Origin: a virus
Strand: one strand, 5' to 3'
Length of the DNA stretch: 64,000 nucleotides
Virus record (IMG/VR): IMGVR_UViG_3300025834_000005
This document shows, one piece after another, positions 4,286-57,241 of the stretch. Under the pieces are notes generated by a model. The model did no database searches and was not told the DNA's origin. It saw only the letters and a program-made list of their open reading frames with translations. Every line of letters begins with the position of its first letter. Within the stretch, counting starts at the first letter, position 1. The translations under genes and the position numbers were made by a program.

Positions 4286-4298
4286 TAATATAAATACT
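4286..4298 (-). promoter_or_regulatory. phage-specific upstream motif (sense AGTATTTATATTA)
   Basis: 22 nt upstream of ATG 4264. Member of the 19-copy motif family. Confidence 0.55.
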
Positions 4299-16516: not shown

Positions 16517-18454
16517 TTATTTCCCTTCTCGCAAGTCTATATCTTTTATAAAATCGTTCACATCTCCAAGGTCACCGCTAATTAACTCATCAATCTCGTT
16601 GATCATATTGGTGGCTGTTTTGTTCGATTTATCCAATTCACTCTCAAAAATTACCTGAGCATCTGATTTTTTTACAATCTCATGTCCATAAACTAATTTT
16701 TCAAGATTTGTGTTAAATTCCGCTTCTGTCATTACTTTTCTCCTGTTAACGGATTCAGCTTCGATTGGTGGCAAGTCTGATGGCGATTGATTTGGTAATC
16801 CAGAACCTCCGAGATCAGCCATATTGATAGGTGGCATATCGCCGCCAACACCTCCACCAGCAGGTGGTGGCATTCCGCCTTCACCTCCACCATCAGGTGG
16901 TGCTGTTGTACCGCTTGCAGCAGCCATAGCTGTTGGGTCGCCATATCTCTTATCAATATCAGCGAATAATCCCGACTTCTTAATTGCGACAGGCGCATCA
17001 GCAAATTCTTGCATAATAACTTTCTCCATTTTCTGTTGTTTCAAGTCCTCAACGATTTCTCTGTCAGTCATATTAAACAACATTCTTTTTGCACCTGTAT
17101 GAGACATTGCAGCGATTCCGCCTTCTGATCTTGTAAGTTCAGTATATGTTTGAGATTTCTCTCTCATTAATTCAGATTTCTGAATATCGAGTTGTGTTGA
17201 TGGATTTGTTAATGTTAAAGTAAAATCATTAAAGTCTTCTGTACTGTAACCTAATAAGTATAAATGAATCATACCCATTTTTGTTAGCTCTTGTACCATA
17301 GCCTGTTGAATTCTATTTACCTTCTTAGCAAATCTAATATCAAATTGCGAGACGTTTTTACCACCACCGCTGGCATCTTGAAATGACAAAAATGGCTTAG
17401 GAATACCCAATCCCATGAATAAATTATCTCTCAAATATTCGATATCATGTATATCATTAAGATTAGTAGCACCTGGCAATGTTTCGATACCTGTCTGAGT
17501 ATTAGCGTTTCTAACAGGTAAAAAGTAATCTTCATCATTACCTAATATGTTAAATCGATAATCAATCTGACCATCATTAGGTGATACTTGCTGAACCTTT
17601 TTAAATTTAGTTGCTACCTTGTACATGTATTCTTCAATATCATCGTCATCGATGTTACCAACGTCTATTTTAAATACCTTTTTCTCGCCAGCACGAATAA
17701 TCCTATATGTTAGCATGGCATCCTCTGCCATTATAAGCTGTCTAAAAACTCTTCTTACTTTGTTTAGTAGCGATGATCCGTATGGAATGTATTTGTCATC
17801 GCCAAGCAATCTAAAGTGAGCTATTTCAAAGGCATTGAATTCATCACCAGTCATTCTTTCTTTGAAAAGAATGCTTGACTTACCGTTTATGATTCTTTCC
17901 GATCTTTCAATCTCAAAATTAACCATTTGCTTAATAGCTGTGATACCCTTTTTTCTTTCACCGAGCATTAATACGAAATTATCGCCGTATTTGCATGTGT
18001 TTCTTGTCCAGAAGGGTAAATTTGTGTTTACATTTAAGATATTATAGTAAAAATCCTCTAAAAGATATTTAATACGATCTTTATTCGAATAAATACTCAA
18101 CATTTTACCGTCTAAGCCTATTGTGGTGGCTTCTTCCATGAATAAGTCCAAAGCACTTGAAATAATTGGGTAGTATTCCATACCCTCATAATCCATGTAA
18201 GCAGGTAGTCTGGCAGATTCGTATTGTAATGCTTTCTGGTAATTCCTATCAGTTGTTTTTGTGAATTTATTTATAAGGCTTCTTTTCTGTTCAAGTTCAA
18301 GTCCTTTTCTATGAACCTCTTCAGGCGAATTACCTTTAATAATTACCTTATTATTTTTTACCTCATTATCAATGCCACCTGTTGTAGTTCCGAAGCCATC
18401 GAAATTAAATATTCCGTTTAGCTTTTGATATACTGTTCCTTTATCTTTATCCAT
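16517..18454 (-). CDS. portal protein (T4 gp20-like position)
   Basis: 645-aa ORF immediately downstream of the terminase on the same strand. Contains a G/P-rich low-complexity insert (TAPPDGGGEGGMPPPAGGGVGGDMPP). Confidence 0.7.
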   Translation of the reverse strand: MDKDKGTVYQKLNGIFNFDGFGTTTGGIDNEVKNNKVIIKGNSPEEVHRKGLELEQKRSLINKFTKTTDRNYQKALQYESARLPAYMDYEGMEYYPIISSALDLFMEEATTIGLDGKMLSIYSNKDRIKYLLEDFYYNILNVNTNLPFWTRNTCKYGDNFVLMLGERKKGITAIKQMVNFEIERSERIINGKSSILFKERMTGDEFNAFEIAHFRLLGDDKYIPYGSSLLNKVRRVFRQLIMAEDAMLTYRIIRAGEKKVFKIDVGNIDDDDIEEYMYKVATKFKKVQQVSPNDGQIDYRFNILGNDEDYFLPVRNANTQTGIETLPGATNLNDIHDIEYLRDNLFMGLGIPKPFLSFQDASGGGKNVSQFDIRFAKKVNRIQQAMVQELTKMGMIHLYLLGYSTEDFNDFTLTLTNPSTQLDIQKSELMREKSQTYTELTRSEGGIAAMSHTGAKRMLFNMTDREIVEDLKQQKMEKVIMQEFADAPVAIKKSGLFADIDKRYGDPTAMAAASGTTAPPDGGGEGGMPPPAGGGVGGDMPPINMADLGGSGLPNQSPSDLPPIEAESVNRRKVMTEAEFNTNLEKLVYGHEIVKKSDAQVIFESELDKSNKTATNMINEIDELISGDLGDVNDFIKDIDLREGK

Positions 18455-18475
18455 TTTATAAAATATTATAATTTT

Positions 18476-18486
18476 CTATAAATACT
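18476..18486 (-). promoter_or_regulatory. phage-specific upstream motif (sense AGTATTTATAG)
   Basis: 22 nt upstream of ATG 18454. Confidence 0.5.
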
Positions 18487-18509
18487 ATTTTTTTCTGCAA
18501 AAGTTCTAT

Positions 18510-18522
18510 AATATAAATAGTA
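18510..18522 (-). promoter_or_regulatory. second motif copy upstream of the portal gene (sense TACTATTTATATT)
   Basis: 56 nt upstream of ATG 18454, just after the terL stop. Confidence 0.4.
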
Positions 18523-18529
18523 TTTCGTT

Positions 18530-19822
18530 TTATTTTTGCCTCATACCACTAAATAACCATGAATTTGCGATATAAGGATTCAATGGTGAAGAGCTATTCG
18601 GCGAAATTTTTGGCACAGGCTTTTCACCCCTTTTCTCACCTATGGCTTTTATATCATTTGCTGATAATATGGATTTAAGCATACTTTCAGTTGTGCTGTT
18701 AGATTGTTTAAATCTTGCCATATCGAAATTAATAACAAATAAGCCAATGGCTAATCCCATAATAGAATCATCATGGAATGACCTCTTATGGTCAGCAACA
18801 CGATTACCAGCAACTGTTACGAATGTCTTCAACTCTGTTAATAATCTCAATGATCTTATAATAATATCTTCTAAATGTATTGATCTCTGTAACTCTAATA
18901 CCACTGATGCTCTGTTGTTTCCAATGAAAAAACCTGGAATTAAGTCAACATAAGATACTGCACCGTCAGACATTGTTTTCTGACCTTTTTTGATATAGCC
19001 AGCTAAACGATCTCTCGATGGTTTATGTGATACTTCAGCATAATGAACATTATCATAACCGATTTCAAGAAGTTTCTCAACAGCTTGTACACCGTATCCA
19101 CCAGTGATATCCACAACAGCATAAGCATTATTATAGGCTTTGCCATATTGATACACAATTTCAGCTAAACCTTGAGGTACAATCTTACCATAATATTCAG
19201 CGACTTGTTCTATTTTGAATTTTTTTAGCTTAACCTCTTTCTCTCTACCGTTCTTTACAATTATCTTTTTTTCTATATACTCCTTGCGTTTGAGGATGTT
19301 AACGGTTGAATTATCTTCTCCGTGACCTGGTGATGCATCGACAGCTATAACATATTGTTCTTCTGGAATAGGGTCTTCGAATATCCACATATTCTTATCC
19401 ACATATTCTTGACGGATAGGCGTTCTGATTTCATTATCTTGGATTCTTTTTAGATATTCTTCATCAATAAAGTTATCTCCTGATCCTAAAAATGAACAGT
19501 TATGATTTGAAAAGCCATTTGCAAAATAATCACAGTCCTTTGAATCTATTATATCAAAGAAATCGCAACCATCGATAATTTCAACAGATTTAACAAAATA
19601 ATCGCCATCTATAGTTGATACGTATGAAATATTTGGAACCAATGATTTAACATACATGTTTTTTCCATTGGCTAAAAATATATGATCGTCGCTCACCGTG
19701 ATCGTCATCTCATTTTCCAACGTGACTTTATACCCTATGTTTTTATGAGACTTACTAATCCCAGCGAAATCAACGAAGTCACCAGATGAGTTTAATATTT
19801 CATATTCTAAATTTATCAGCAT
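18530..19822 (-). CDS. terL: terminase large subunit, C-terminal fragment: intein C-part (aa 1-108) fused to the nuclease domain
   Basis: Intein block B TVSDDHIF and blocks F/G DFFDIIDSKDCDYFANGFSNHN followed by +1 Cys. Then RNaseH-like terminase nuclease motifs VIAVDASPGHGED and SFHDD. Confidence 0.8.
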   Translation of the reverse strand: MLINLEYEILNSSGDFVDFAGISKSHKNIGYKVTLENEMTITVSDDHIFLANGKNMYVKSLVPNISYVSTIDGDYFVKSVEIIDGCDFFDIIDSKDCDYFANGFSNHNCSFLGSGDNFIDEEYLKRIQDNEIRTPIRQEYVDKNMWIFEDPIPEEQYVIAVDASPGHGEDNSTVNILKRKEYIEKKIIVKNGREKEVKLKKFKIEQVAEYYGKIVPQGLAEIVYQYGKAYNNAYAVVDITGGYGVQAVEKLLEIGYDNVHYAEVSHKPSRDRLAGYIKKGQKTMSDGAVSYVDLIPGFFIGNNRASVVLELQRSIHLEDIIIRSLRLLTELKTFVTVAGNRVADHKRSFHDDSIMGLAIGLFVINFDMARFKQSNSTTESMLKSILSANDIKAIGEKRGEKPVPKISPNSSSPLNPYIANSWLFSGMRQK

Positions 19823-21105
19823 TTTATAAAGTTAATACATTCGTTGATTATCTCAACTGGTTTTTTATTTCTATTATATTCATCTGACGTTACTATCATT
19901 ATTTCATAGCCCATATCCTTCAATATGTCATATCTAATTTTATCCTTTTTTGAGTTATGCCAATAGTTTCCATTATATTCTATGATCTTGTTTTTGTGCT
20001 TAAAATCCAACATCATAATAATATTCTCATGATTATAAATTTCAGGAATTCTAAGTACGTATTCCTTATTTAAATCGTGAAAATATGTATCGTCTTTATT
20101 GTCCATCAAGTTATAAACGTTAAAAAAAAGTTCTTGAGATATTTTACTAAATCTGTTTGCTTTTAATAGCGACAGGGTTTCCATTTTATTGTTAACATAG
20201 TTTTTATATTTTTCTTCGCCGCTATTTCCATATTTTTTTTCAAACCATTTCAAACTATTAGTGCTATTCTCATGTACATTAGCCTTTCTATTTTTATGAT
20301 ATTGTTCCCAATCAGTACCATAAGTCGATTTAAACCATTCAGTGGATGGGTATTTTGGTTCGCATTTGGCGCAAATTATATTAAACACGCCATTAACGAA
20401 TTTCCAATGCTTTAGGTTTTTATGAATATCGCAATATGTATTAATTTTATTAACTAAAATATATAGCCTATGTGAAAACTTATTTAAGTTTTTATTAAGA
20501 TTATCCATGTGTGACGTGTGATAATAAAGACTTGCAAAGAGTTTAGTATCAGCTGCTATTAATTTTCTGTTTCCAGATTTTCCGAGATACTTGTAATAAT
20601 CATTTTGTAATAATTCAATAGTTTCATCCTTGGTATAGAATTCTTTAATAATATTTATTTTATTTGCTGTTAATTCCCATGATTTTTTTGCTGAGTTTTT
20701 TGCCTTCTCAATAAAATCGCCAGATATTCTATCATATACTAATATTTTACCATCCTTCGTTATTTTATCTATTTCGCCATTATATTTTTTTAGATATAAT
20801 AATTTAGGATATAATGATCTATTCATTGAGCATGTTTGTATTTCCTTTGTATGAATATCGATATCCTTTAGGAGATTCGGGAAATCTTTATTAAACATTC
20901 GGCTTCCACCCTGAATTTTATATTTTTCAATATATATAGTAATTATTTTATTAATTAATTTTTTTCGCATCTGATCATTTAGATATAAATACGTAGACGA
21001 ATTGTTTTGTTCTTTTAATTTATCATATAAATCCTCAATTCTAATTTTTTCGATTATGCCTGTTTGTTTATTTCTTATTGTTAGCAAAGCCTCGCCAAAA
21101 ACGCA
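19499..21105 (-). mobile_element. intein in terL carrying a PD-(D/E)xK-like nuclease domain, interrupted by a stop/start overlap (split-intein architecture)
   Basis: Starts at Cys366 (CVFGEALLTIRNKQTGIIEKIRIEDLYDKL). About 400-aa insert ending LDFKHKNKIIEYNGNYWH. ORF junction ATGCTGA at 19816-19822. Ends HN|C at 19499/19498. Confidence 0.75.
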
Positions 21106-22200
21106 TAGGATTTCCTGTGCGATTTTTTTCATATCGCCGTTGGCATCACGAACCTGTTCTTCGAACCAAGGTGATGAGGCTTCCCAGCCATCATCCATCA
21201 TTTTTATTCTCTGAGCATCTTCCCAACCCTCATCAACTATCTTAATTTCGGTGTCTTTCCCTTTATTTTTAAGCCATACGAGTCCTTTATTGTATCTTGG
21301 GTCGTTATACCACCACAACTCAATAGCACAGAAGTTATTCTTACCTTCCTTTCGTCTTGCACCTTCGAAATTCTTATAAAAAACAGGGTCTAATCCTGAT
21401 GGGGTGCTAACCATAATAGCTCTACCCCCTGTACTTAATGCAGGCTTTGCAGCTGTCCAAAACTTATCTGATTTTTCAGTCCAAGCAGTTTCATCCCAGA
21501 ATAATAACGTTGGCGTAGTACCACGAAGTCCACTCTTTGCTGAGAATGCACCCAAGGCTGAATTATTATCATAACGTTTTAATTTCTGAGTATCTTTATA
21601 ACTTTTATCAGTCCCAGCACCTTTACCTGTTTTTGGCTTAAGCCAATCAGGACAGCCCTCAATAAATTCTACAACATCATTCATCAACTCATCACGAGCT
21701 GTTTCAAGTTTATCTGCGACAATGGCAGCGGTTCTGTTACTATTAAACATAACATACCATGCGATATACGCACACGTAGCCGTTGAAATACCAGCCTGTC
21801 TATATTTATTAGCAATGTTAAATCTCTCATCGAGATATGATTGTATTAATCTTTTTTGGAATACGAATAATTTAAATGGCACAATTCGTCCAGCCACACC
21901 CTGCGTCTGGTCAAATATTGTTAAATAAGTTTCGATAAAATACATTGGACTTGATACACATCTGATAATCTCACATTCCTGTTCAGACATGTTTAATTCA
22001 CTTGCTTTTTTTATCGATCCATTTGCAGTGATTATAATGGGTTCTACTTTTCCAGAAGATTTACGTAAGTCTTTAGCCAGCTTTCTCTGTTCCTCTTTCT
22101 TTTGTAAGTCGGAAGCACTGAATGCTGCTACTGCTGGTATATGTTCGGGGAATTGATTGTCATCAATTTCTGACGAATCTTCTGATTTTTTTACTGCCAT
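19816..22200 (-). CDS. terL: terminase large subunit, N-terminal fragment: ATPase domain + short intein N-part + nuclease-like domain
   Basis: ATPase motifs YRQAGISTA (Walker A-like), LLFWDETAW (Walker B), MVSTPSG. Intein block A begins at aa 366. Confidence 0.8.
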   Translation of the reverse strand: MAVKKSEDSSEIDDNQFPEHIPAVAAFSASDLQKKEEQRKLAKDLRKSSGKVEPIIITANGSIKKASELNMSEQECEIIRCVSSPMYFIETYLTIFDQTQGVAGRIVPFKLFVFQKRLIQSYLDERFNIANKYRQAGISTATCAYIAWYVMFNSNRTAAIVADKLETARDELMNDVVEFIEGCPDWLKPKTGKGAGTDKSYKDTQKLKRYDNNSALGAFSAKSGLRGTTPTLLFWDETAWTEKSDKFWTAAKPALSTGGRAIMVSTPSGLDPVFYKNFEGARRKEGKNNFCAIELWWYNDPRYNKGLVWLKNKGKDTEIKIVDEGWEDAQRIKMMDDGWEASSPWFEEQVRDANGDMKKIAQEILCVFGEALLTIRNKQTGIIEKIRIEDLYDKLKEQNNSSTYLYLNDQMRKKLINKIITIYIEKYKIQGGSRMFNKDFPNLLKDIDIHTKEIQTCSMNRSLYPKLLYLKKYNGEIDKITKDGKILVYDRISGDFIEKAKNSAKKSWELTANKINIIKEFYTKDETIELLQNDYYKYLGKSGNRKLIAADTKLFASLYYHTSHMDNLNKNLNKFSHRLYILVNKINTYCDIHKNLKHWKFVNGVFNIICAKCEPKYPSTEWFKSTYGTDWEQYHKNRKANVHENSTNSLKWFEKKYGNSGEEKYKNYVNNKMETLSLLKANRFSKISQELFFNVYNLMDNKDDTYFHDLNKEYVLRIPEIYNHENIIMMLDFKHKNKIIEYNGNYWHNSKKDKIRYDILKDMGYEIMIVTSDEYNRNKKPVEIINECINFIKC

Positions 22201-22210
22201 GTTTTAAATA

Positions 22211-22687
22211 TTAAAATCTAATAGATGATACCTCGATAAACTCATCATTTTTTAGTATTATCTTTCGTCTGCTAAATATCTCTTTAACTCTCTCCAATGT
22301 CATTCCATAATGAAATACAAGTAGAGGCTTATCTTCCGAAGCTTCGATAAGTTTTTCGAATTGCTCATAGCCGTTATCGCTTTCTCTCTCAGTTTCATAT
22401 GCTAATGCATGTATAGTGTGAACACCATGCATGTATTCACGTGTCACGTCATCATGCAGACAAAATAAATCAAATGATGATGTTTTTAAACTTATGATAG
22501 CACCGATATATTCCTCTGCTGGTGGTATAGCGTTTCCATATGCTGGAATTAAATCCCAACACCATTCCTTAACCTCTATATTCGTAGGATCGTTTGAAAA
22601 GATAAATTCAAAAAGACCATCGCCCTTTGAATTATAACCTATTTTTAAAACATATATTAACTGCAAACCTTCTTCATCGTATTCCAT
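22211..22687 (-). CDS. hypothetical protein
   Basis: 158-aa ORF upstream of terL in the same operon. Confidence 0.6.
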   Translation of the reverse strand: MEYDEEGLQLIYVLKIGYNSKGDGLFEFIFSNDPTNIEVKEWCWDLIPAYGNAIPPAEEYIGAIISLKTSSFDLFCLHDDVTREYMHGVHTIHALAYETERESDNGYEQFEKLIEASEDKPLLVFHYGMTLERVKEIFSRRKIILKNDEFIEVSSIRF

Positions 22688-22698
22688 AACATTACTTT

Positions 22699-22712
22699 TA
22701 TATTAAATAGTG
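22699..22712 (-). promoter_or_regulatory. phage-specific upstream motif (sense CACTATTTAATATA)
   Basis: 12 nt upstream of ATG 22687. Confidence 0.45.
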
Positions 22713-22742
22713 TCTAATTTGTTTTTTACAATTTTTTATAAA

Positions 22743-22775
22743 AAACAAATGCCTCTATATAAGAGGCATTTGTTT
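22743..22775 (-). terminator. intrinsic terminator
   Basis: aaacaaatgcctc-tatataa-gaggcatttgttt hairpin downstream of the 861-aa ORF. Confidence 0.75.
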
Positions 22776-22793
22776 TATTTTCAATAATATTAA

Positions 22794-25379
22794 TTACTTT
22801 TTGTTCAATTTGATGAATTCAGCATACTGTTTATTAATAACAGCATCCAATCTTTTCATTTGCGGCGATTTAGCACTTTCGCTTAATCTTGCTTTCTTTT
22901 TTCCAGTCACTTCAAGTAAATGGTTTTGAACATATGTTTTGAAAACATCTTCAACTGTTTCATTTACTTTAGCTTTCTTTTTAGCTTTACCTTCGTTCAT
23001 CGTAACGTTTACTGTTTTTGACTGTGCGTCAACATTAACATTAACGCCAGCACCTGTGCTTACAGTTGCTAACGGCGACGGTGAAACTGCTCCGAGTGAT
23101 TGTGTGTCAGTTGCGAACATACTTTCAGGTTCGGTTTCGTTGGTATCGCCAACAGTATCGATATCAGGCTCGGTACTATCTTCCTTTCCAAGATCAATAT
23201 CTTCAATATTTTCAAGATCGTCATCAGCCTCATTAATACCATCTGATGCACCTGCAACAACATATGTTGCATCATTTCCGTATACATGATTAACACCAGC
23301 ATTCATCTTTTTGGCATATGCATCAGCTTCTTCTTTAGTATCGAAACCTTGTTTAAGTGTTCCTTTATCGTCTTTCTTATATTTATCCTTTTTAAAGTTT
23401 ACTTTGAATGGAAGATCATCCTCTTCTTTAATTAAAGTGTTACCACCCTCAAGTTCACCCTCATTTTGAGCATTAAACTTGCTTAGGTTTGTTTCGCCAT
23501 TAGGTACTCTTAATTGATTGCTTAATGTGTGCAATACAGAAGCATAGTTTACAGGTTTTCCACCGTTTTTAACGGTTGCAGCGTTCAATGCATCGATCTT
23601 TGCTTTCAACTCCTGAGCAATTTTAGCTACAGCACCGACAGCTGAATTCTGATTGCTATTTCTATAATCCTTTTCAACACTCTTATAAGCGTCTTTAGCA
23701 CCATTCGCTACAGCGTTAGCTGCATTACCTACGCCAGTTGCCACATTGTTAGCAGCACCAGCAACAGCATTACCCACACCCTTAGCGGCATTACCCACAC
23801 CAGTTGCTACATTGTTAGCAGCACCAGCAACAGCGTTACCCACACCCTTGGCAGCACCAGCAACAGCACCAGCACCTTTTCCAGCTAATTTACCAACACC
23901 TCTACCAACAGCACCAGCAAGATTCCCCCAGTTTAATTCATTAATCTTCAACTGTTTGTCTTCGTCTGTTGATTCGCTTAGTTTCATGATCTCTGGTTTA
24001 AGAACCTCATTAACATAAGTTTCGTGACCATAATCGTTTACTAATGATTCGTTTACGTCGTCATTGGTGTATAATGAAACTGTTTCAGCGTCGCCGTTAT
24101 TTTTTCCGTCTTTATGTGCGTTAGCATAACCAGAAATAAGACTTCCCATTTCATCGTCGCCACATTCCATAATGCTTTCTTTTGTGTAACCTCTTGATTC
24201 TGCGTATTGAACAAATCCACCGCACTCATTACAAGTCTCTGCGTTTTCATTCATTCTCATTACCTGATTCAATGGTATATTATATCCGTTTGGATCAATA
24301 ACTGGTTCTGATTCGCCAGTTTCTTCATTTGGGACATATTCAATTTCAAGCCAGTCAGATGTTTTTGGATCATCTGAACCAAATGCATCACGTACTTTTG
24401 CTGAATCTCCTGAACTATCTATCATAATCTCATATCCGCCACTATTTGATACAGTATACGACCCGTTTGGTGTGAATTCCTCGTCGCCGAATCCAGCTGT
24501 TTCATCAACTTCGTCTGGCATGCTATTTTCAAGGTCTTGTTCGCCACCAGTATTTGTTTTTAATATTTTGTTTGCAATCTCTTTTCTATCTTCAACCTCA
24601 ATTTCAGGTAGTTTGTCTTTAAAAGATGCTACAAGTGAAGCTAAATATGATTTGGTTTGTTCAGGAGTCATTTCAGCTTTTCTGATGGTGTTTGTTAACT
24701 TGCCAATTGATTTCTCAATCGCCTTATTAATGTCATCGCCCTCAGCACCTTCTTCGCCACCCATATCGGCAGGCATTTCTTCACCGCTCATATCAGCAGG
24801 CATCTCATCACCCATTTCTCCACCAGCACCCATATCGCCAGCACCGTCGCTCATATCAGCACCCATACCTGTTTCTGCTCCCATTTCGTCGCCAGCACCC
24901 ATGTTACCGCCATCATTAGCAGTAATTTCTGGTGATGCTTTTTCAGCGGCTGTTGCTGCTTCAAGATTATCTAAAGAATCTTCAGATTTTTCAATTTCAT
25001 CACCAGCAATATCTTCATTTAGAACCATTTTGCTAACATTACCGTTAACTTTGATCCCAGATGCTCTATTCATATCGGTAATCATGAAATTTCTCTGTTT
25101 TTCAGATTCAGCAAGCGTTGAAAATTGGAATGATGTGATATTCTCAAGTCCACCAATGTATGTAAAATCTGATGCGTCTGGATTTAATTTTGTACCACCT
25201 CTTTTTATGTAATAGTTATGGTTTTCCTTAATAATACCAAAGGCGATCCCTTCATTATTTCTCTTAATGTCTACCAAAGTACCGATATTTCTATCGTTGA
25301 TTTTAGCTTTAAAATCCTTTATTTCAGATAATTCTTGAAGTCTGTTGTAGAACGCTTCTTTAGATGTATTTTTTTTCAT
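22794..25379 (-). CDS. large low-complexity protein (acidic Met/Gly/Asp repeats, Gly/Ala/Val/Asn repeats, Lys-rich tail)
   Basis: 861-aa ORF. Antisense ORFs in the track are low-complexity shadows. N-terminus NRLQELSEI resembles the RLFE leader family. Confidence 0.65.
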   Translation of the reverse strand: MKKNTSKEAFYNRLQELSEIKDFKAKINDRNIGTLVDIKRNNEGIAFGIIKENHNYYIKRGGTKLNPDASDFTYIGGLENITSFQFSTLAESEKQRNFMITDMNRASGIKVNGNVSKMVLNEDIAGDEIEKSEDSLDNLEAATAAEKASPEITANDGGNMGAGDEMGAETGMGADMSDGAGDMGAGGEMGDEMPADMSGEEMPADMGGEEGAEGDDINKAIEKSIGKLTNTIRKAEMTPEQTKSYLASLVASFKDKLPEIEVEDRKEIANKILKTNTGGEQDLENSMPDEVDETAGFGDEEFTPNGSYTVSNSGGYEIMIDSSGDSAKVRDAFGSDDPKTSDWLEIEYVPNEETGESEPVIDPNGYNIPLNQVMRMNENAETCNECGGFVQYAESRGYTKESIMECGDDEMGSLISGYANAHKDGKNNGDAETVSLYTNDDVNESLVNDYGHETYVNEVLKPEIMKLSESTDEDKQLKINELNWGNLAGAVGRGVGKLAGKGAGAVAGAAKGVGNAVAGAANNVATGVGNAAKGVGNAVAGAANNVATGVGNAANAVANGAKDAYKSVEKDYRNSNQNSAVGAVAKIAQELKAKIDALNAATVKNGGKPVNYASVLHTLSNQLRVPNGETNLSKFNAQNEGELEGGNTLIKEEDDLPFKVNFKKDKYKKDDKGTLKQGFDTKEEADAYAKKMNAGVNHVYGNDATYVVAGASDGINEADDDLENIEDIDLGKEDSTEPDIDTVGDTNETEPESMFATDTQSLGAVSPSPLATVSTGAGVNVNVDAQSKTVNVTMNEGKAKKKAKVNETVEDVFKTYVQNHLLEVTGKKKARLSESAKSPQMKRLDAVINKQYAEFIKLNKK
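23722..23853 (-). repeat. tandem 2 x 66-nt in-frame repeat
   Basis: Near-identical copies at 23722-23787 and 23788-23853, encoding KGVGNAVAGAANNVATGVGNAA units. Confidence 0.8.
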
Positions 25380-26283: not shown

Positions 26284-26296
26284 ATTATAAATACAG
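26284..26296 (-). promoter_or_regulatory. phage-specific upstream motif (sense CTGTATTTATAAT)
   Basis: 43 nt upstream of ATG 26241. Confidence 0.45.
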
Positions 26297-26315: not shown

Positions 26316-26326
26316 AGTATTTATAT
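26316..26326 (+). promoter_or_regulatory. phage-specific upstream motif (AGTATTTATAT)
   Basis: 23 nt upstream of ATG 26349. Heads the first fibre operon. Confidence 0.55.
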
Positions 26327-33570: not shown

Positions 33571-33583
33571 TAGTATTTATATA
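33571..33583 (+). promoter_or_regulatory. phage-specific upstream motif (TAGTATTTATATA)
   Basis: 14 nt upstream of ATG 33597. Heads the second fibre operon. Confidence 0.55.
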
Positions 33584-39620: not shown

Positions 39621-39631
39621 AGTATTTATAT
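39621..39631 (+). promoter_or_regulatory. phage-specific upstream motif (AGTATTTATAT)
   Basis: 48 nt upstream of ATG 39679. Heads the third fibre operon. Confidence 0.5.
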
Positions 39632-39678: not shown

Positions 39679-42297
39679 ATGGCTATTGAATTAAATGATA
39701 ATATTAAAATATTAGCACCTAAACCCGATAGTTCACGATATTGGAATCTTGCCAACACGCCATATACTGATACGGTACAAGTATTGTCAGAAATACCTAT
39801 AGGATTACGATTTATCGGAATGCTTGTGAATGTTAATGGTACTGAATACTGGTTTAGAGACGGTATTAATCTCGAATTATATAATAAACCTTTAACTGGT
39901 CTGGATATGGTAGCGGCACTTCAAGCACTGCCATTAGCCGATAAATTAACAGCAAATGATATAACATATAATGCTGTATTATTGAAGACATTTCTGGATA
40001 ATTTAACAGGATCTAATCTTGGTGTACTTGAGATAGAAACGACGTATAATGGTAATTTTTTTAATGGAATGCGTGTAGCATTTTATGATAATACTGATAC
40101 GTTGATAAAAATTGTCGAAACTTTAACAGGATCTACACTGACGACGCTTCCCATTGGCGTTTACACTGCTGTATTACTGCCTCCTACAGGATATATTACA
40201 GATATGGTTACGATCACTGATGCTAATAATTCTGACAACGCTTCCACCGTAACAACAATTAGCGGAATAACTATTAATAGTAGCATTAAATGCACTATTA
40301 ATATTGTATTAGTTCCCGAAGCAATCCCTGTGCTCAATTATATGTTAATTAATAATGGCGATTTATTTTCATCAATTTCATTATTATCAATAACACCAAA
40401 TTCAGTTGGTGTTATTGATCAGTATATGCTTTCAGAGAGTTCAACATTTGCTGGCGCATTGTGGATTAACTATACAGGGGTTATAAATTATAATAAGGAC
40501 TATATTTCAGATATAACAGTAGTCCTTTATTTGAAATTAAGGAATTCTAAGGGCGTTAGTAATAGTGCAAGTGATAGTATAACCATGACAAATGGCTTCC
40601 ATCGTAGCGACGTGAGTGATACGTATAACTTATTAGGTGACGCTATTAACGCTGTTATTGCCGATTATAATGGTAATTTAACTCAAGATGTGATGATTAC
40701 TTGCGTTGGTATGACTATAAATACCAGAAATACTGGATCATATTTAATAGACGTAAATGCTCTAAATAAAAATTCAGATTATGTATTGATTATTGACGGG
40801 ACAAATAGACTAACACTGGACTGCGCAAGTCTTGGGGGAATACGAATAAAAGATAGTAAAAATATTCTAATTAATGATATAAATTTTATTAATGTGGGTT
40901 CGCAATTAACTGAAGCAGCACCTGAAGAACTTGCAGCTGTTTTTTCACAAGGAACTCCATTGAAACCCTGCAATAATATTGTTATAAAATCTTGCCATGT
41001 TGATTGTAGAGAGACTTACAACGGAATTACAAAGGACGGCAGTTATGGTTTTATCGCTAAAAATACTACGAATTTTAGCACTTTTGAAAATAATATCATA
41101 AATGCGGCTGCTGTGTTGATAAAATGTTCATTTGTTAATAATCTCAATGTCATAAAAAATATTTTTAGAGGTACACAAGTTATCGGTATTGTTAGCCAGC
41201 CTACATTAGTATTAAATACTAACGGTAAACGTGTATATATTTCTGATAATGACTTCAATGGCGATACATTTGACACTGGACTCATTATTGATGCCAGATA
41301 TGTGACAATAATTAGAAATAAATTCCACAGCCTCAATGGTGAATCAATTAGAATGATCAACACAACAAGAGGCGTTAGTCTTGATATAAGCTCCAATTCA
41401 TTTTATAACAACTTGTTAGTAGCTCCATATCCTTGGGTAAAATATACTATAATCCTTAATAATTATTTTGAAACAGTGAGATTTGTATCAAACACTTGTG
41501 AAATGAGAGGTGTAAATTATAGTGGAACTGGTGAATCTTTGATTAGAGGATATAATTGTACGATTAATAAATTAATATTTTCAAACAACATTATTTATAT
41601 TAATTGTCCAGATCCACGATACGCTAATAATACAAGCGGTGGTAATATATTGAATTTTAGTGATATTGTTACATTGGAGTCAAATAATAATATCTATTTA
41701 GACATATCTGCTGACAACAACACTTTAAATACGCCCATTATAACAACAGACACAACATCGACAACAGTGTTGAGATTCATGAACAAGATAAGTGATCTTA
41801 ATGCATTAGGCTATGAAATAGATTCAAGGGTTATACCAATTAATTCCGATTTATTTGTGAGTAAATTGGGTTATGATTACAAGCTAACAATCAATGGAAG
41901 CGTACTTGCCGTAAAATTGTCAGGCGATGTTAATGTTATTGATAATAATTATAAATTAACTGGCTCAACTGTTAATTCTGGCGCATTTGGTTATAATTAT
42001 AACGCTATTTCTGAGACGGATTTATCGACGGATTATATTGCCACTGATCTTGATACCGATACTGTTTATACGATAAATGACGTTATAAACGTATTGTCAA
42101 CACAAGAGCTTTTGTTTGAAACACTTAACAAGAATAGAACCGCTGTGCTTTCATGGAAAATAATAGATAGTTCTAATCAGCATATTGTAAATTCGTTATT
42201 AGGATTATCTGGGTTTGTATCTGTATTTTCAAATTTAAACCCTGATGGCACTTATTTATCAGATGCTTCATATAATATTGAAATAAATTTAATTTAA
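39679..42297 (+). CDS. tailspike-like protein with right-handed beta-helix repeats (putative depolymerase)
   Basis: Shared N-terminal module (MAIELNDNIKILAPKPDSSRYWNLANTPY...). PbH1-like repeats: NNIINAAAVLIKCSFVNN, IKNIFRG, ISDNDFNG, IRNKFHS, SSNSFYNN. Confidence 0.6.
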   Translation: MAIELNDNIKILAPKPDSSRYWNLANTPYTDTVQVLSEIPIGLRFIGMLVNVNGTEYWFRDGINLELYNKPLTGLDMVAALQALPLADKLTANDITYNAVLLKTFLDNLTGSNLGVLEIETTYNGNFFNGMRVAFYDNTDTLIKIVETLTGSTLTTLPIGVYTAVLLPPTGYITDMVTITDANNSDNASTVTTISGITINSSIKCTINIVLVPEAIPVLNYMLINNGDLFSSISLLSITPNSVGVIDQYMLSESSTFAGALWINYTGVINYNKDYISDITVVLYLKLRNSKGVSNSASDSITMTNGFHRSDVSDTYNLLGDAINAVIADYNGNLTQDVMITCVGMTINTRNTGSYLIDVNALNKNSDYVLIIDGTNRLTLDCASLGGIRIKDSKNILINDINFINVGSQLTEAAPEELAAVFSQGTPLKPCNNIVIKSCHVDCRETYNGITKDGSYGFIAKNTTNFSTFENNIINAAAVLIKCSFVNNLNVIKNIFRGTQVIGIVSQPTLVLNTNGKRVYISDNDFNGDTFDTGLIIDARYVTIIRNKFHSLNGESIRMINTTRGVSLDISSNSFYNNLLVAPYPWVKYTIILNNYFETVRFVSNTCEMRGVNYSGTGESLIRGYNCTINKLIFSNNIIYINCPDPRYANNTSGGNILNFSDIVTLESNNNIYLDISADNNTLNTPIITTDTTSTTVLRFMNKISDLNALGYEIDSRVIPINSDLFVSKLGYDYKLTINGSVLAVKLSGDVNVIDNNYKLTGSTVNSGAFGYNYNAISETDLSTDYIATDLDTDTVYTINDVINVLSTQELLFETLNKNRTAVLSWKIIDSSNQHIVNSLLGLSGFVSVFSNLNPDGTYLSDASYNIEINLI

Positions 42298-45137: not shown

Positions 45138-45148
45138 CGTATTTATAG
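45138..45148 (+). promoter_or_regulatory. phage-specific upstream motif (CGTATTTATAG)
   Basis: 13 nt upstream of ATG 45161. Confidence 0.45.
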
Positions 45149-46551: not shown

Positions 46552-46564
46552 TAATATAAATACG
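46552..46564 (-). promoter_or_regulatory. phage-specific upstream motif (sense CGTATTTATATTA)
   Basis: 11 nt upstream of ATG 46541. Confidence 0.5.
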
Positions 46565-53538: not shown

Positions 53539-53550
53539 AATATAAATACG
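53539..53550 (-). promoter_or_regulatory. phage-specific upstream motif (sense CGTATTTATATT)
   Basis: 12 nt upstream of ATG 53527. Confidence 0.5.
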
Positions 53551-57229: not shown

Positions 57230-57241
57230 ATTATAAATACT
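57230..57241 (-). promoter_or_regulatory. phage-specific upstream motif (sense AGTATTTATAAT)
   Basis: 9 nt upstream of ATG 57221. Confidence 0.5.

Follow-up and report, generated by a model that had tools for sequence, protein, structure and literature searches.

A probable fractured terL gene in which a predicted Vsr-like homing endonuclease follows the N-intein in frame

How might a phage obtain its large terminase (TerL) from a gene that is broken in two, when a nuclease lies in the break and is read in the same frame as the first half? This is the question raised by one locus of IMG/VR virus record IMGVR_UViG_3300025834_000005. The window, by which we mean the whole stretch of 64,000 nucleotides (nt) that was analysed (33.7% G+C), carries terL as two open reading frames (ORFs), both on the minus strand: ORF1 (22200..19816) encodes 794 amino acids (aa) with no internal stop between its modules, and ORF2 (19822..18530, stop at 18530-18532) encodes 430 aa. 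We consider it very probable that this is a fractured terL in which a Vsr-like endonuclease cassette occupies a class-1 intein split at the position known as S2, with the N-terminal intein piece (IntN) and the nuclease joined in one frame.

All features of the locus given below lie on the minus strand. ORF1 opens with the N-extein, the ATPase domain of TerL (residues 1-365, 21106..22200), and passes directly into a 35-aa IntN (residues 366-400, 21001..21105) that begins at C366 with VFGEALLTIRNKQTGIIEKIRIEDLYDKLKEQNN and reads in full CVFGEALLTIRNKQTGIIEKIRIEDLYDKLKEQNN. The frame thus runs ...KKIAQEIL|C366VFGEA...DLYDKLKEQNN and continues uninterrupted through a 10-codon linker, SSTYLYLNDQ (residues 401-410, 20971..21000), into a 384-aa homing endonuclease module that starts at Met411 (residues 411-794, 19819..20970) and reads ...LDFKHKNKIIEYNGNYWH...FIKC794. 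In mRNA sense and in the frame of ORF1 the downstream junction is ...TTT ATA AAA TGC TGA TAA, two stops in succession, with TGA at 19816-19818 and TAA directly after it. The ATG of ORF2 (19822..19820) takes its A from the end of AAA and its TG from TGC, which places ORF2 in the -1 frame and produces a 7-nt stop/start overlap, ATGCTGA (19816..19822). ORF2 then encodes the C-terminal intein piece (IntC; residues 1-108, 19499..19822), which runs MLINLEYEILNSSG...VSDDH...FANGFSNHN, with MLINLEYEIL at its N-terminus and S44 and H47 within block B (ITVSDDHIF); after N108 follows the C-extein, the nuclease domain of TerL, from C109 SFLGSGDNF (residues 109-430, 18533..19498). Because intact TerLs of the P0027 type, uninterrupted homologues of ~683 aa, read straight across this site (...KIAQELL|CSFLGSGDNF), the insertion site and both splice junctions are fixed. 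An ATPase domain ending in KKIAQEIL before the first cysteine of an intein, the ATGCTGA overlap, and an ORF2 with block B and a terminal HN|C had been proposed from the letters in the original prediction, and all are present, on a minus strand that it had not stated.

The assignment of both halves to TerL, made in the same prediction, is borne out as well. The ATPase half matches Pfam Terminase_6N (E=5.6e-10) and the PHROG terminase large subunit family (E=1e-31); against the intact TerL P0027 the N-extein shows 74% identity (to residues 12-361) and the C-extein 73% (to residues 359-680), and the nearest relative of TerL in the PDB is T4 gp17. A portal gene of T4 type adjoins terL in the window and holds the same position in relatives with intact terL.

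Pfam intein models gave no match to the window intein, and profiles built from relatives were required. A profile of 13 reconstituted inteins, each joined from its N-piece and C-piece, matches CatC (6DSL_B) with E=1.6e-14; its positions 34-146 align with CatC 8-115, and the two C-fragments align from their first residues onward. Further matches of this profile are gp41-1 (6QAZ, E=5e-11) and VidaL (6VGV, E=7e-4). The best PDB match of IntN is CatN (6DSL_A), ...GIIQKISMEDLYQRL against ...GIIEKIRIEDLYDKL, at an E-value of 0.084 that is limited by the length of the piece. Cys1, S44 and H47 of block B, H107-N108 and Cys+1 are invariant in the 13 inteins, fused and free, and the window intein has the features of class 1: Cys1 after the N-extein, an S-x-x-H block B, a terminal HN and C+1. 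In the AlphaFold2 (AF2) model of ORF1 the IntN forms two strands and a helix (E372-376, E383-387, H388-396), with a predicted local distance difference test score (pLDDT) of 40-53 for IntN and linker compared with 86-95 for the nuclease; the ATPase domain is of low confidence in this full-length model, for which the alignment was shallow. The helix DLYDKL precedes the break. Because IntC starts where CatC starts, we place the break at S2, after helix 1 and ~35 residues past Cys1, where about 30 had been predicted.

Judged by its sequence, the window intein is a member, on a distant branch, of the AceL-TerL/GOS-TerL/Cat family of atypically split inteins, a likeness to AceL-TerL having been suggested at the outset. 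It shares with these inteins a phage large terminase as host, class-1 chemistry with Cys1 and Cys+1, the S2 break (a site assigned to AceL-TerL and GOS-TerL; PMC13014065) and an IntC of ~104-108 aa that holds blocks B, F and G. It differs in its low sequence identity to Cat and in its N-terminal piece: theirs is a free peptide of 25-37 aa, whereas that of the window is extended by 394 residues and leads into a nuclease that is folded.

A profile of 39 homologues of this nuclease matches 3R3P, the catalytic domain of I-Bth0305I (hmmsearch, E=1.3e-5), and Foldseek ranks the same structure first for the AF2 model of the nuclease (pLDDT 89.8), with prob 1.00 and a TM of 0.64 over the target, as expected from the original description of the nuclease as Vsr-like. 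A single-sequence PDB search with the nuclease found nothing, and the matches to Pfam DUF559 and MTES_1575 were below threshold. The EDxHD signature has been described for the I-Bth0305I family (PMC3239194), and from that work and the 3R3P profile alignment we derive E690, D732, E741, H748 and D753 as candidate active-site residues. Three of them, D732, E741 and H748, show no variation, D753 is conserved to at least 90%, and E690 falls within a conserved ISQELF motif; all lie in the EDxHD/Vsr-like catalytic domain (ORF1 residues 685-794, 19819..20148). Profile and model together identify the module as an EDxHD/Vsr-like homing endonuclease whose activity is predicted. Helices make up most of its N-terminal ~275 aa, which also contain a small beta unit and the conserved pattern Cys-x3-His ... 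Cys-x2-Cys; this region has no PDB or Pfam match, and no search was aimed at NUMOD motifs. Like the window nuclease, I-Bth0305I has the E...D...x...H...D residues in a Vsr-like catalytic domain at its C-terminus, and a two-part build with a long non-catalytic N-terminal region. It differs in sitting in a group I intron of recA and in carrying NUMOD and helix-turn-helix elements in an N-terminal region of ~165 aa, whereas the ~275-aa region of the window nuclease has no detectable PDB relative. A group I intron or other RNA element as carrier of the window nuclease was rejected, there being no Rfam match at E<=1 in 18000-22800. A blastn comparison of the region with 50,697 deposited phage genomes returned no match.

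Estimates from five closely related pairs (4 fused and 1 free) give dN/dS of 0.04-0.2 across exteins, IntN, nuclease and IntC, with 0.09-0.15 for the C-extein and 0.10-0.16 for the nuclease in the fused pairs. These values indicate that all parts of the locus are functional and under purifying selection.

An unusual feature of the locus is that the stop codon which normally ends IntN is missing in the window lineage. Among 80 related viral loci, every one with an N-intein and a near-complete nuclease was classified: IntN is continuous with the nuclease in the window and in 17 loci, which together represent 9 distinct sequences; the two are in the same frame but separated by a stop in 7 loci, and they are in different frames in 16. 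In distant terL lineages IntN ends after 30-32 aa, usually followed by a 33-41-nt spacer and then the ATG of the nuclease, which is the classical arrangement; in closer lineages its length is 36-41 aa (mostly 40-41) and the distance to that ATG is usually 2-25 nt. Distant relatives with an IntN of 30-41 aa do have the short, stop-terminated fragment, and a free-standing nuclease behind a stop and spacer is present in sister lineages. The window has neither: no stop occurs for 429 codons after Cys1, in agreement with the earlier claim that nuclease and N-fragment share a frame. In ~40 clusters the free-standing homologues, 383-401 aa long, start exactly at the residue aligned to Met411.

In relatives the DNA corresponding to the linker, 2-41 nt ahead of the ATG of the endonuclease, carries one or more IntN stop codons or lies in another frame. 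From IntN to the ATG it is conserved as nucleotides and not as protein across fused and free forms (TCTTGTGAGTATTTATA...), and the two forms can be separated by as little as one substitution in a motif (TATTTATAA versus TATTTATAT) and by linker length. By this comparison the linker would once have served as the 5' leader of the endonuclease gene and has since become open and in frame. The residues that follow YLY are highly variable (LNDQ, EKGF, KSRY, KNKQ, RNTIL and others). Both clades of fused loci are nevertheless uniformly open, with linkers of 10 and 12 codons that differ by a multiple of three nucleotides, and many of the linker codons are one step from a stop. Uniformly open linkers whose lengths differ by threes suggest selection to keep the frame.

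The nuclease has also retained what look like expression signals of its own. An ATG equivalent to that of Met411 is kept in all fused linkers seen, and 13 nt upstream of it in the window lies a promoter-like 9-mer, GTATTTATA (20984..20992), which is conserved in the linkers of relatives. The window contains 12 copies of this 9-mer where 2.4 would be expected, a 5-fold excess, and 0 of 100 shuffles reached that number. Ten of the 11 other copies are intergenic and have a same-strand ATG 10-48 nt downstream of them, for instance that of the portal gene; the copy at 20992..20984 is the sole intragenic one without the ATG of a separate long ORF just downstream. The copies lie at 4289-4297(-), 18477-18485(-), 20984-20992(-), 26286-26294(-), 26317-26325(+), 33573-33581(+), 39622-39630(+), 40716-40724(-), 45139-45147(+), 46555-46563(-), 53541-53549(-) and 57232-57240(-). 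Their wider context is roughly aGTATTTATAtwAAA, and reverse complementation of the 9-mer gives the T4 late-promoter core TATAAATA, yet the 9-mer is oriented with the genes. From its placement, GTATTTATA is probably a phage promoter element. Because both the ATG and the promoter-like motif have been retained inside ORF1, a separate, free nuclease product of 384 aa is likely to be made from an internal transcript, which would also carry ORF2. The nuclease was originally called embedded; it does lie in frame within ORF1, but it keeps the promoter-like motif and start codon of the free form.

A sigma-70 promoter scan returned 24 sites against 26 expected, which is chance level; no terminator-like site was found on the coding strand between IntN and nuclease; and the local fold found in looking for a hairpin upstream of the nuclease start is weak, at -7.6 kcal/mol over 101 nt (a value without shuffle comparison). 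No Shine-Dalgarno-like purine run precedes the starts that were inspected (e.g. 18454, 19822, 20970 and 22200), whose leaders are A/T-rich, which suggests a host with initiation independent of such sequences.

Several other states of the same locus are found among relatives: an empty site, a free-standing nuclease, a healed mini-intein, a mirror-image fusion, and a decayed nuclease. Contiguous mini-inteins are present in P0020 (833 aa; L087 1501-4002) and P0025 (858 aa; L088 1501-4077), and their loop retains the last 12-17 nuclease codons in frame. L087 reads NN|LIVDESFSFLTFS|INIDYEIL and aligns over 83 nt with the nuclease 3' end and IntC start of L010, a 1-nt indel healing the overlap. Such remnants identify the mini-inteins, on sequence comparison, as probable healed fractures, in which the nuclease was deleted and the intein returned to cis-splicing, and not as ancestors. 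In the mirror fusion, which belongs to distant phages (L055 2387-5444, also L056 and L057), a 336-aa ORF of TerL-N-IntN ends with a stop, and in the 689-aa ORF that follows the nuclease runs into IntC and TerL-C in frame, with neither a stop nor a Met between them; P0244 (678 aa) is a second, independent nuclease-IntC fusion. In L032 (= P0014) and L039 the nuclease is cut by premature stops while intein halves and exteins are intact, as would be expected of the decaying-nuclease stage of a homing cycle. No doubly fused form was present among the 120 and 150 matches listed, nor among six long proteins that were read. A second, canonical LAGLIDADG intein of ~480 aa interrupts the ATPase domain in P0007 (1272 aa), P0015, P0168 and P0176, with junctions ...MVS|CVTKD...HNQ..HQ|TPSGLD; it is additional to the split or mini-intein, and the window is without it.

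In the nuclease tree, built by neighbour joining like all trees here, the fused loci fall into two clades that are each recovered in 100/100 bootstrap replicates. The two come together as a single monophyletic group in 22/100 replicates, and the free pair L011/L013 joins clade 2 in 39/100. Nucleotide identity between L004 and L015 reaches 89-93% over a tract that starts precisely at the linker and ends at the nuclease stop, and is 69-81% in the terL flanks; in L001/L003 and L011/L013 identity is raised over N-intein, nuclease and C-intein and is lower in the flanks. Such tracts are the pattern expected of recent homing or gene conversion and point to lateral exchange, which would make the endonuclease cassette a mobile unit still moving between phage terL alleles. 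The nuclease tree and the extein tree disagree for the same three pairs (L004 versus L015, L001 versus L003, and L011 versus L013).

Before any mechanism is proposed, it must be asked whether the break in the reading frame is real and whether ribosomes stop there. An overlap of only 7 nt between ORFs one frame apart, and a contiguous mini-intein relative (L087) that differs from the split form at this point by a 1-nt indel, could be taken to mean that an indel introduced during sequencing or assembly, in the linker or where ORF1 meets ORF2, has broken what is really one ORF with a large cis-splicing intein. We give this almost no credence. Fifteen contigs, which come from different samples and were built by different assemblers, carry the identical pair of 794-aa and 430-aa proteins, 11 of these contigs being 0.2-1 Mb long (e.g. 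a 328-kb ENA contig, with a 51-kb Logan contig from another run among the 15); the same ORF1 architecture is found in 12 further 90%-identity clusters, 59-69% identical over full length, among the matches listed; ORF1 closes with a double stop; and stop and restart are kept in more than 20 distinct loci whose nucleases are 34-65% identical to that of the window. Sequencing error, raised at the outset as an explanation of 19816-19822, is therefore rejected on the identical proteins and the conserved junction. Programmed -1 ribosomal frameshifting before the ORF1 stop would instead yield a single TerL-N-IntN-endonuclease-IntC-TerL-C precursor, a cis-splicing maxi-intein with a non-canonical nuclease site. 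ORF2 does lie in the -1 frame, close relatives share the junction pattern ATG-N-TAA/TGA, and the mirror fusions and healed mini-inteins demonstrate that an in-frame junction is viable at this site. However, the -1 frame is open for just four codons before the ATG (TAA CTT TAT AAA ATG), and these contain no X XXY YYZ slippery heptamer when read directly; the two stops in a row that close ORF1 also speak against it; the minimum free energy fold of the 101-nt junction has no separate downstream hairpin (again without comparison to shuffled sequences); and ORF2-type ORFs always start with their own ATG at the position where CatC begins. The overlap of nuclease stop and IntC ATG is 4 (ATGA), 7 (ATGTTAA or ATGCTGA), 10, 11, 14 or 25 nt in relatives, and the frame offset of IntC is -1 in the close clade and +1 in the distant one, so that there is no conserved shift site. 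Because overlap length and frame offset differ in this way, frameshifting followed by cis-splicing, which the original prediction had offered as an alternative, seems to us very unlikely, and the comparison identifies the 3' junction as a true gene boundary and not a frameshift site.

Two further explanations accept the anatomy and question its meaning. The window terL might be a decaying pseudogene, with packaging carried out by an intact terL elsewhere in the genome: the window covers 64 kb of a ~328-kb genome, and relatives such as L032 and L039 do have truncated nucleases. Yet no further terL was found within the 64-kb window (a separate intact copy elsewhere in the genome, together with absence of splicing activity, had been named in advance as a finding that would undo the proposal), every segment is under the purifying selection described above, the splicing residues are all intact, and the locus occupies its conserved place beside the T4-type portal gene; we regard decay as extremely improbable. 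A more serious competitor, to which we would assign somewhat less than an even chance, is that IntN and nuclease share a frame by neutral accident. In that case only the internal promoter and ATG would give rise to functional nuclease, and the tail on TerL-N-IntN would be a tolerated by-product or would mildly impair splicing. In its favour, fused and free forms can be as little as one motif substitution plus linker length apart, the internal ATG and motif are conserved in all fused forms, and the linker varies freely after YLY. On the other hand, both fused clades are deep, with synonymous differences of up to ~0.6-0.7 within a clade, and throughout this divergence they have stayed open and in frame, with linkers of 10 and 12 codons in which many codons could become a stop in one step. 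Neutrality would alter the significance of the fusion and not its anatomy: the fusion would still be made whenever ORF1 is translated.

Returning to a fractured terL with an in-frame IntN-nuclease, we propose a mechanism that builds on the observed anatomy, homologies, conservation, purifying selection and recombination signal, and in which splicing, internal initiation and nuclease activity are predicted from sequence. A giant phage of ~328 kb with T4-type packaging genes would keep terL as a 'fractured gene', broken into two ORFs by an EDxHD cassette inside a class-1 intein, after its first helix. Translation of ORF1 would yield a 794-aa TerL(ATPase)-IntN-linker-endonuclease, and translation of ORF2 (IntC-TerL nuclease, 430 aa) would start at the ATG that overlaps the ORF1 stop. 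The 35-aa IntN, presumably flexible alone, would dock onto IntC to complete the Hint fold, and trans-splicing would then produce a 687-aa TerL and release a 429-aa IntN-endonuclease and the 108-aa IntC. By a second route of expression, the internal promoter-like motif and Met411 could provide the free 384-aa enzyme from a transcript that also carries ORF2. Assembly of this type of intein is said to involve threading of the N-extein through IntC (review, PMC11766414). Because both ends of IntN are capped by large domains, threading is implausible here; if splicing holds, IntC must fold around IntN.

Several considerations weigh against this proposal. Trans-splicing is argued from sequence, and the role of GTATTTATA as a promoter from its position. 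An IntN held between a 365-aa domain and a 394-aa tail might assemble poorly, given that natural atypically split inteins have free IntN fragments or tails of 15-37 aa (PMC13014065) and given the threading just mentioned (PMC11766414). The fused state could persist neutrally and not by selection, a second terL may sit beyond the 64 kb examined, and with monophyly in 22/100 replicates either one or two origins of the fused clades would be compatible with the nuclease tree. We therefore offer only tentatively, and with considerable doubt, the more ambitious reading in which the IntN-endonuclease fusion and its mirror image, the endonuclease-IntC fusion, are selectable, functional steps by which a free-standing EDxHD nuclease becomes an in-frame domain of an S2 intein, the nuclease being made together with TerL and released by trans-splicing, and IntN assembling although capped at both ends, which would rule out threading.

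Two other features of the neighbourhood were noted. An 861-aa ORF (22794-25379, minus strand), two genes upstream of terL, contains long acidic stretches rich in Gly, Met, Asp and Glu with a repeated GVGNAVAGAANNVATGVGNAA; it has no Pfam match on an identical contig, and its position is conserved in relatives. Between it and a 158-aa ORF upstream of terL lies a perfect 15-bp palindromic hairpin, AAAACAAATGCCTCT ATATA AGAGGCATTTGTTTT (22742-22776), followed by a T-rich tract and terminator-like in appearance.

The origin of nuclease-containing inteins is usually argued from end states. The terL family described here offers a natural series at one site, from empty through free nuclease, 5' fusion (the window), 3' fusion and decayed nuclease to healed, and this series makes the stepwise model of Dassa et al. 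2009 directly testable. If splicing is true, a 394-residue C-terminal tail on a 35-aa IntN is tolerated, which would constrain how atypical inteins assemble and be of use in protein engineering. There is also a lesson for annotation: such terL genes appear as pairs of a 'terminase N-terminal domain' and a 'hypothetical' protein, easily mistaken for frameshifted pseudogenes.

Much of this locus has precedents. Split TerL inteins with this break, fractured genes, Vsr-like homing endonucleases and start/stop overlaps at the C-intein are already known. In the literature that could be searched we found no natural split intein with an N-fragment that continues in frame into a nuclease, and the in-frame IntN-nuclease fusion thus appears to be undescribed. 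In a 2025 survey the Vsr-like nucleases listed for inteins are confined to the split-intein loci of Dassa et al. and an antisense form newly reported there (bioRxiv 10.1101/2025.01.02.630785). Bifunctional maxi-inteins with LAGLIDADG or HNH nucleases are comparable in that the nuclease stays attached to intein sequence after predicted splicing and its translation is coupled to that of the host gene. By contrast, the window nuclease comes from another nuclease family, is in frame at its 5' end only, with a stop and restart at the 3' junction, and sits at S2, after block A and helix 1, instead of between blocks B and F. The non-canonical actinobacteriophage inteins of Gosselin et al. (bioRxiv 10.1101/2025.01.02.630785) have likewise been interpreted as cases of a free nuclease gene caught on its way into an intein, with TerL among the hosts; those inteins are contiguous, with the nuclease out of frame or antisense, whereas the intein of the window is split and its nuclease is in the frame of IntN.

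A close parallel is with the fractured genes of Dassa et al. 2009 (PMC2677866). There, as here, one strand carries a host gene, a split intein and a nuclease gene of Vsr-like type, a promoter-like element stands just upstream of the nuclease start (a hairpin and late-promoter element in that work), and the nuclease gene runs at its 3' end into the beginning of IntC, with an overlap of 6-69 bp there and 7 nt here. One 'Terminase' locus in the same study is fractured at an unusual point and has a long C-part lacking only motif N1 (PMC2677866). The difference lies at the 5' side of the nuclease: in the published loci a stop and 27-51 nt of non-coding spacer precede a free nuclease, whereas in the window the spacer is translated in frame. 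The fusion thus appears to be one allelic state of a classical fractured gene, resembling a half-way stage in the integration of a nuclease into its intein.

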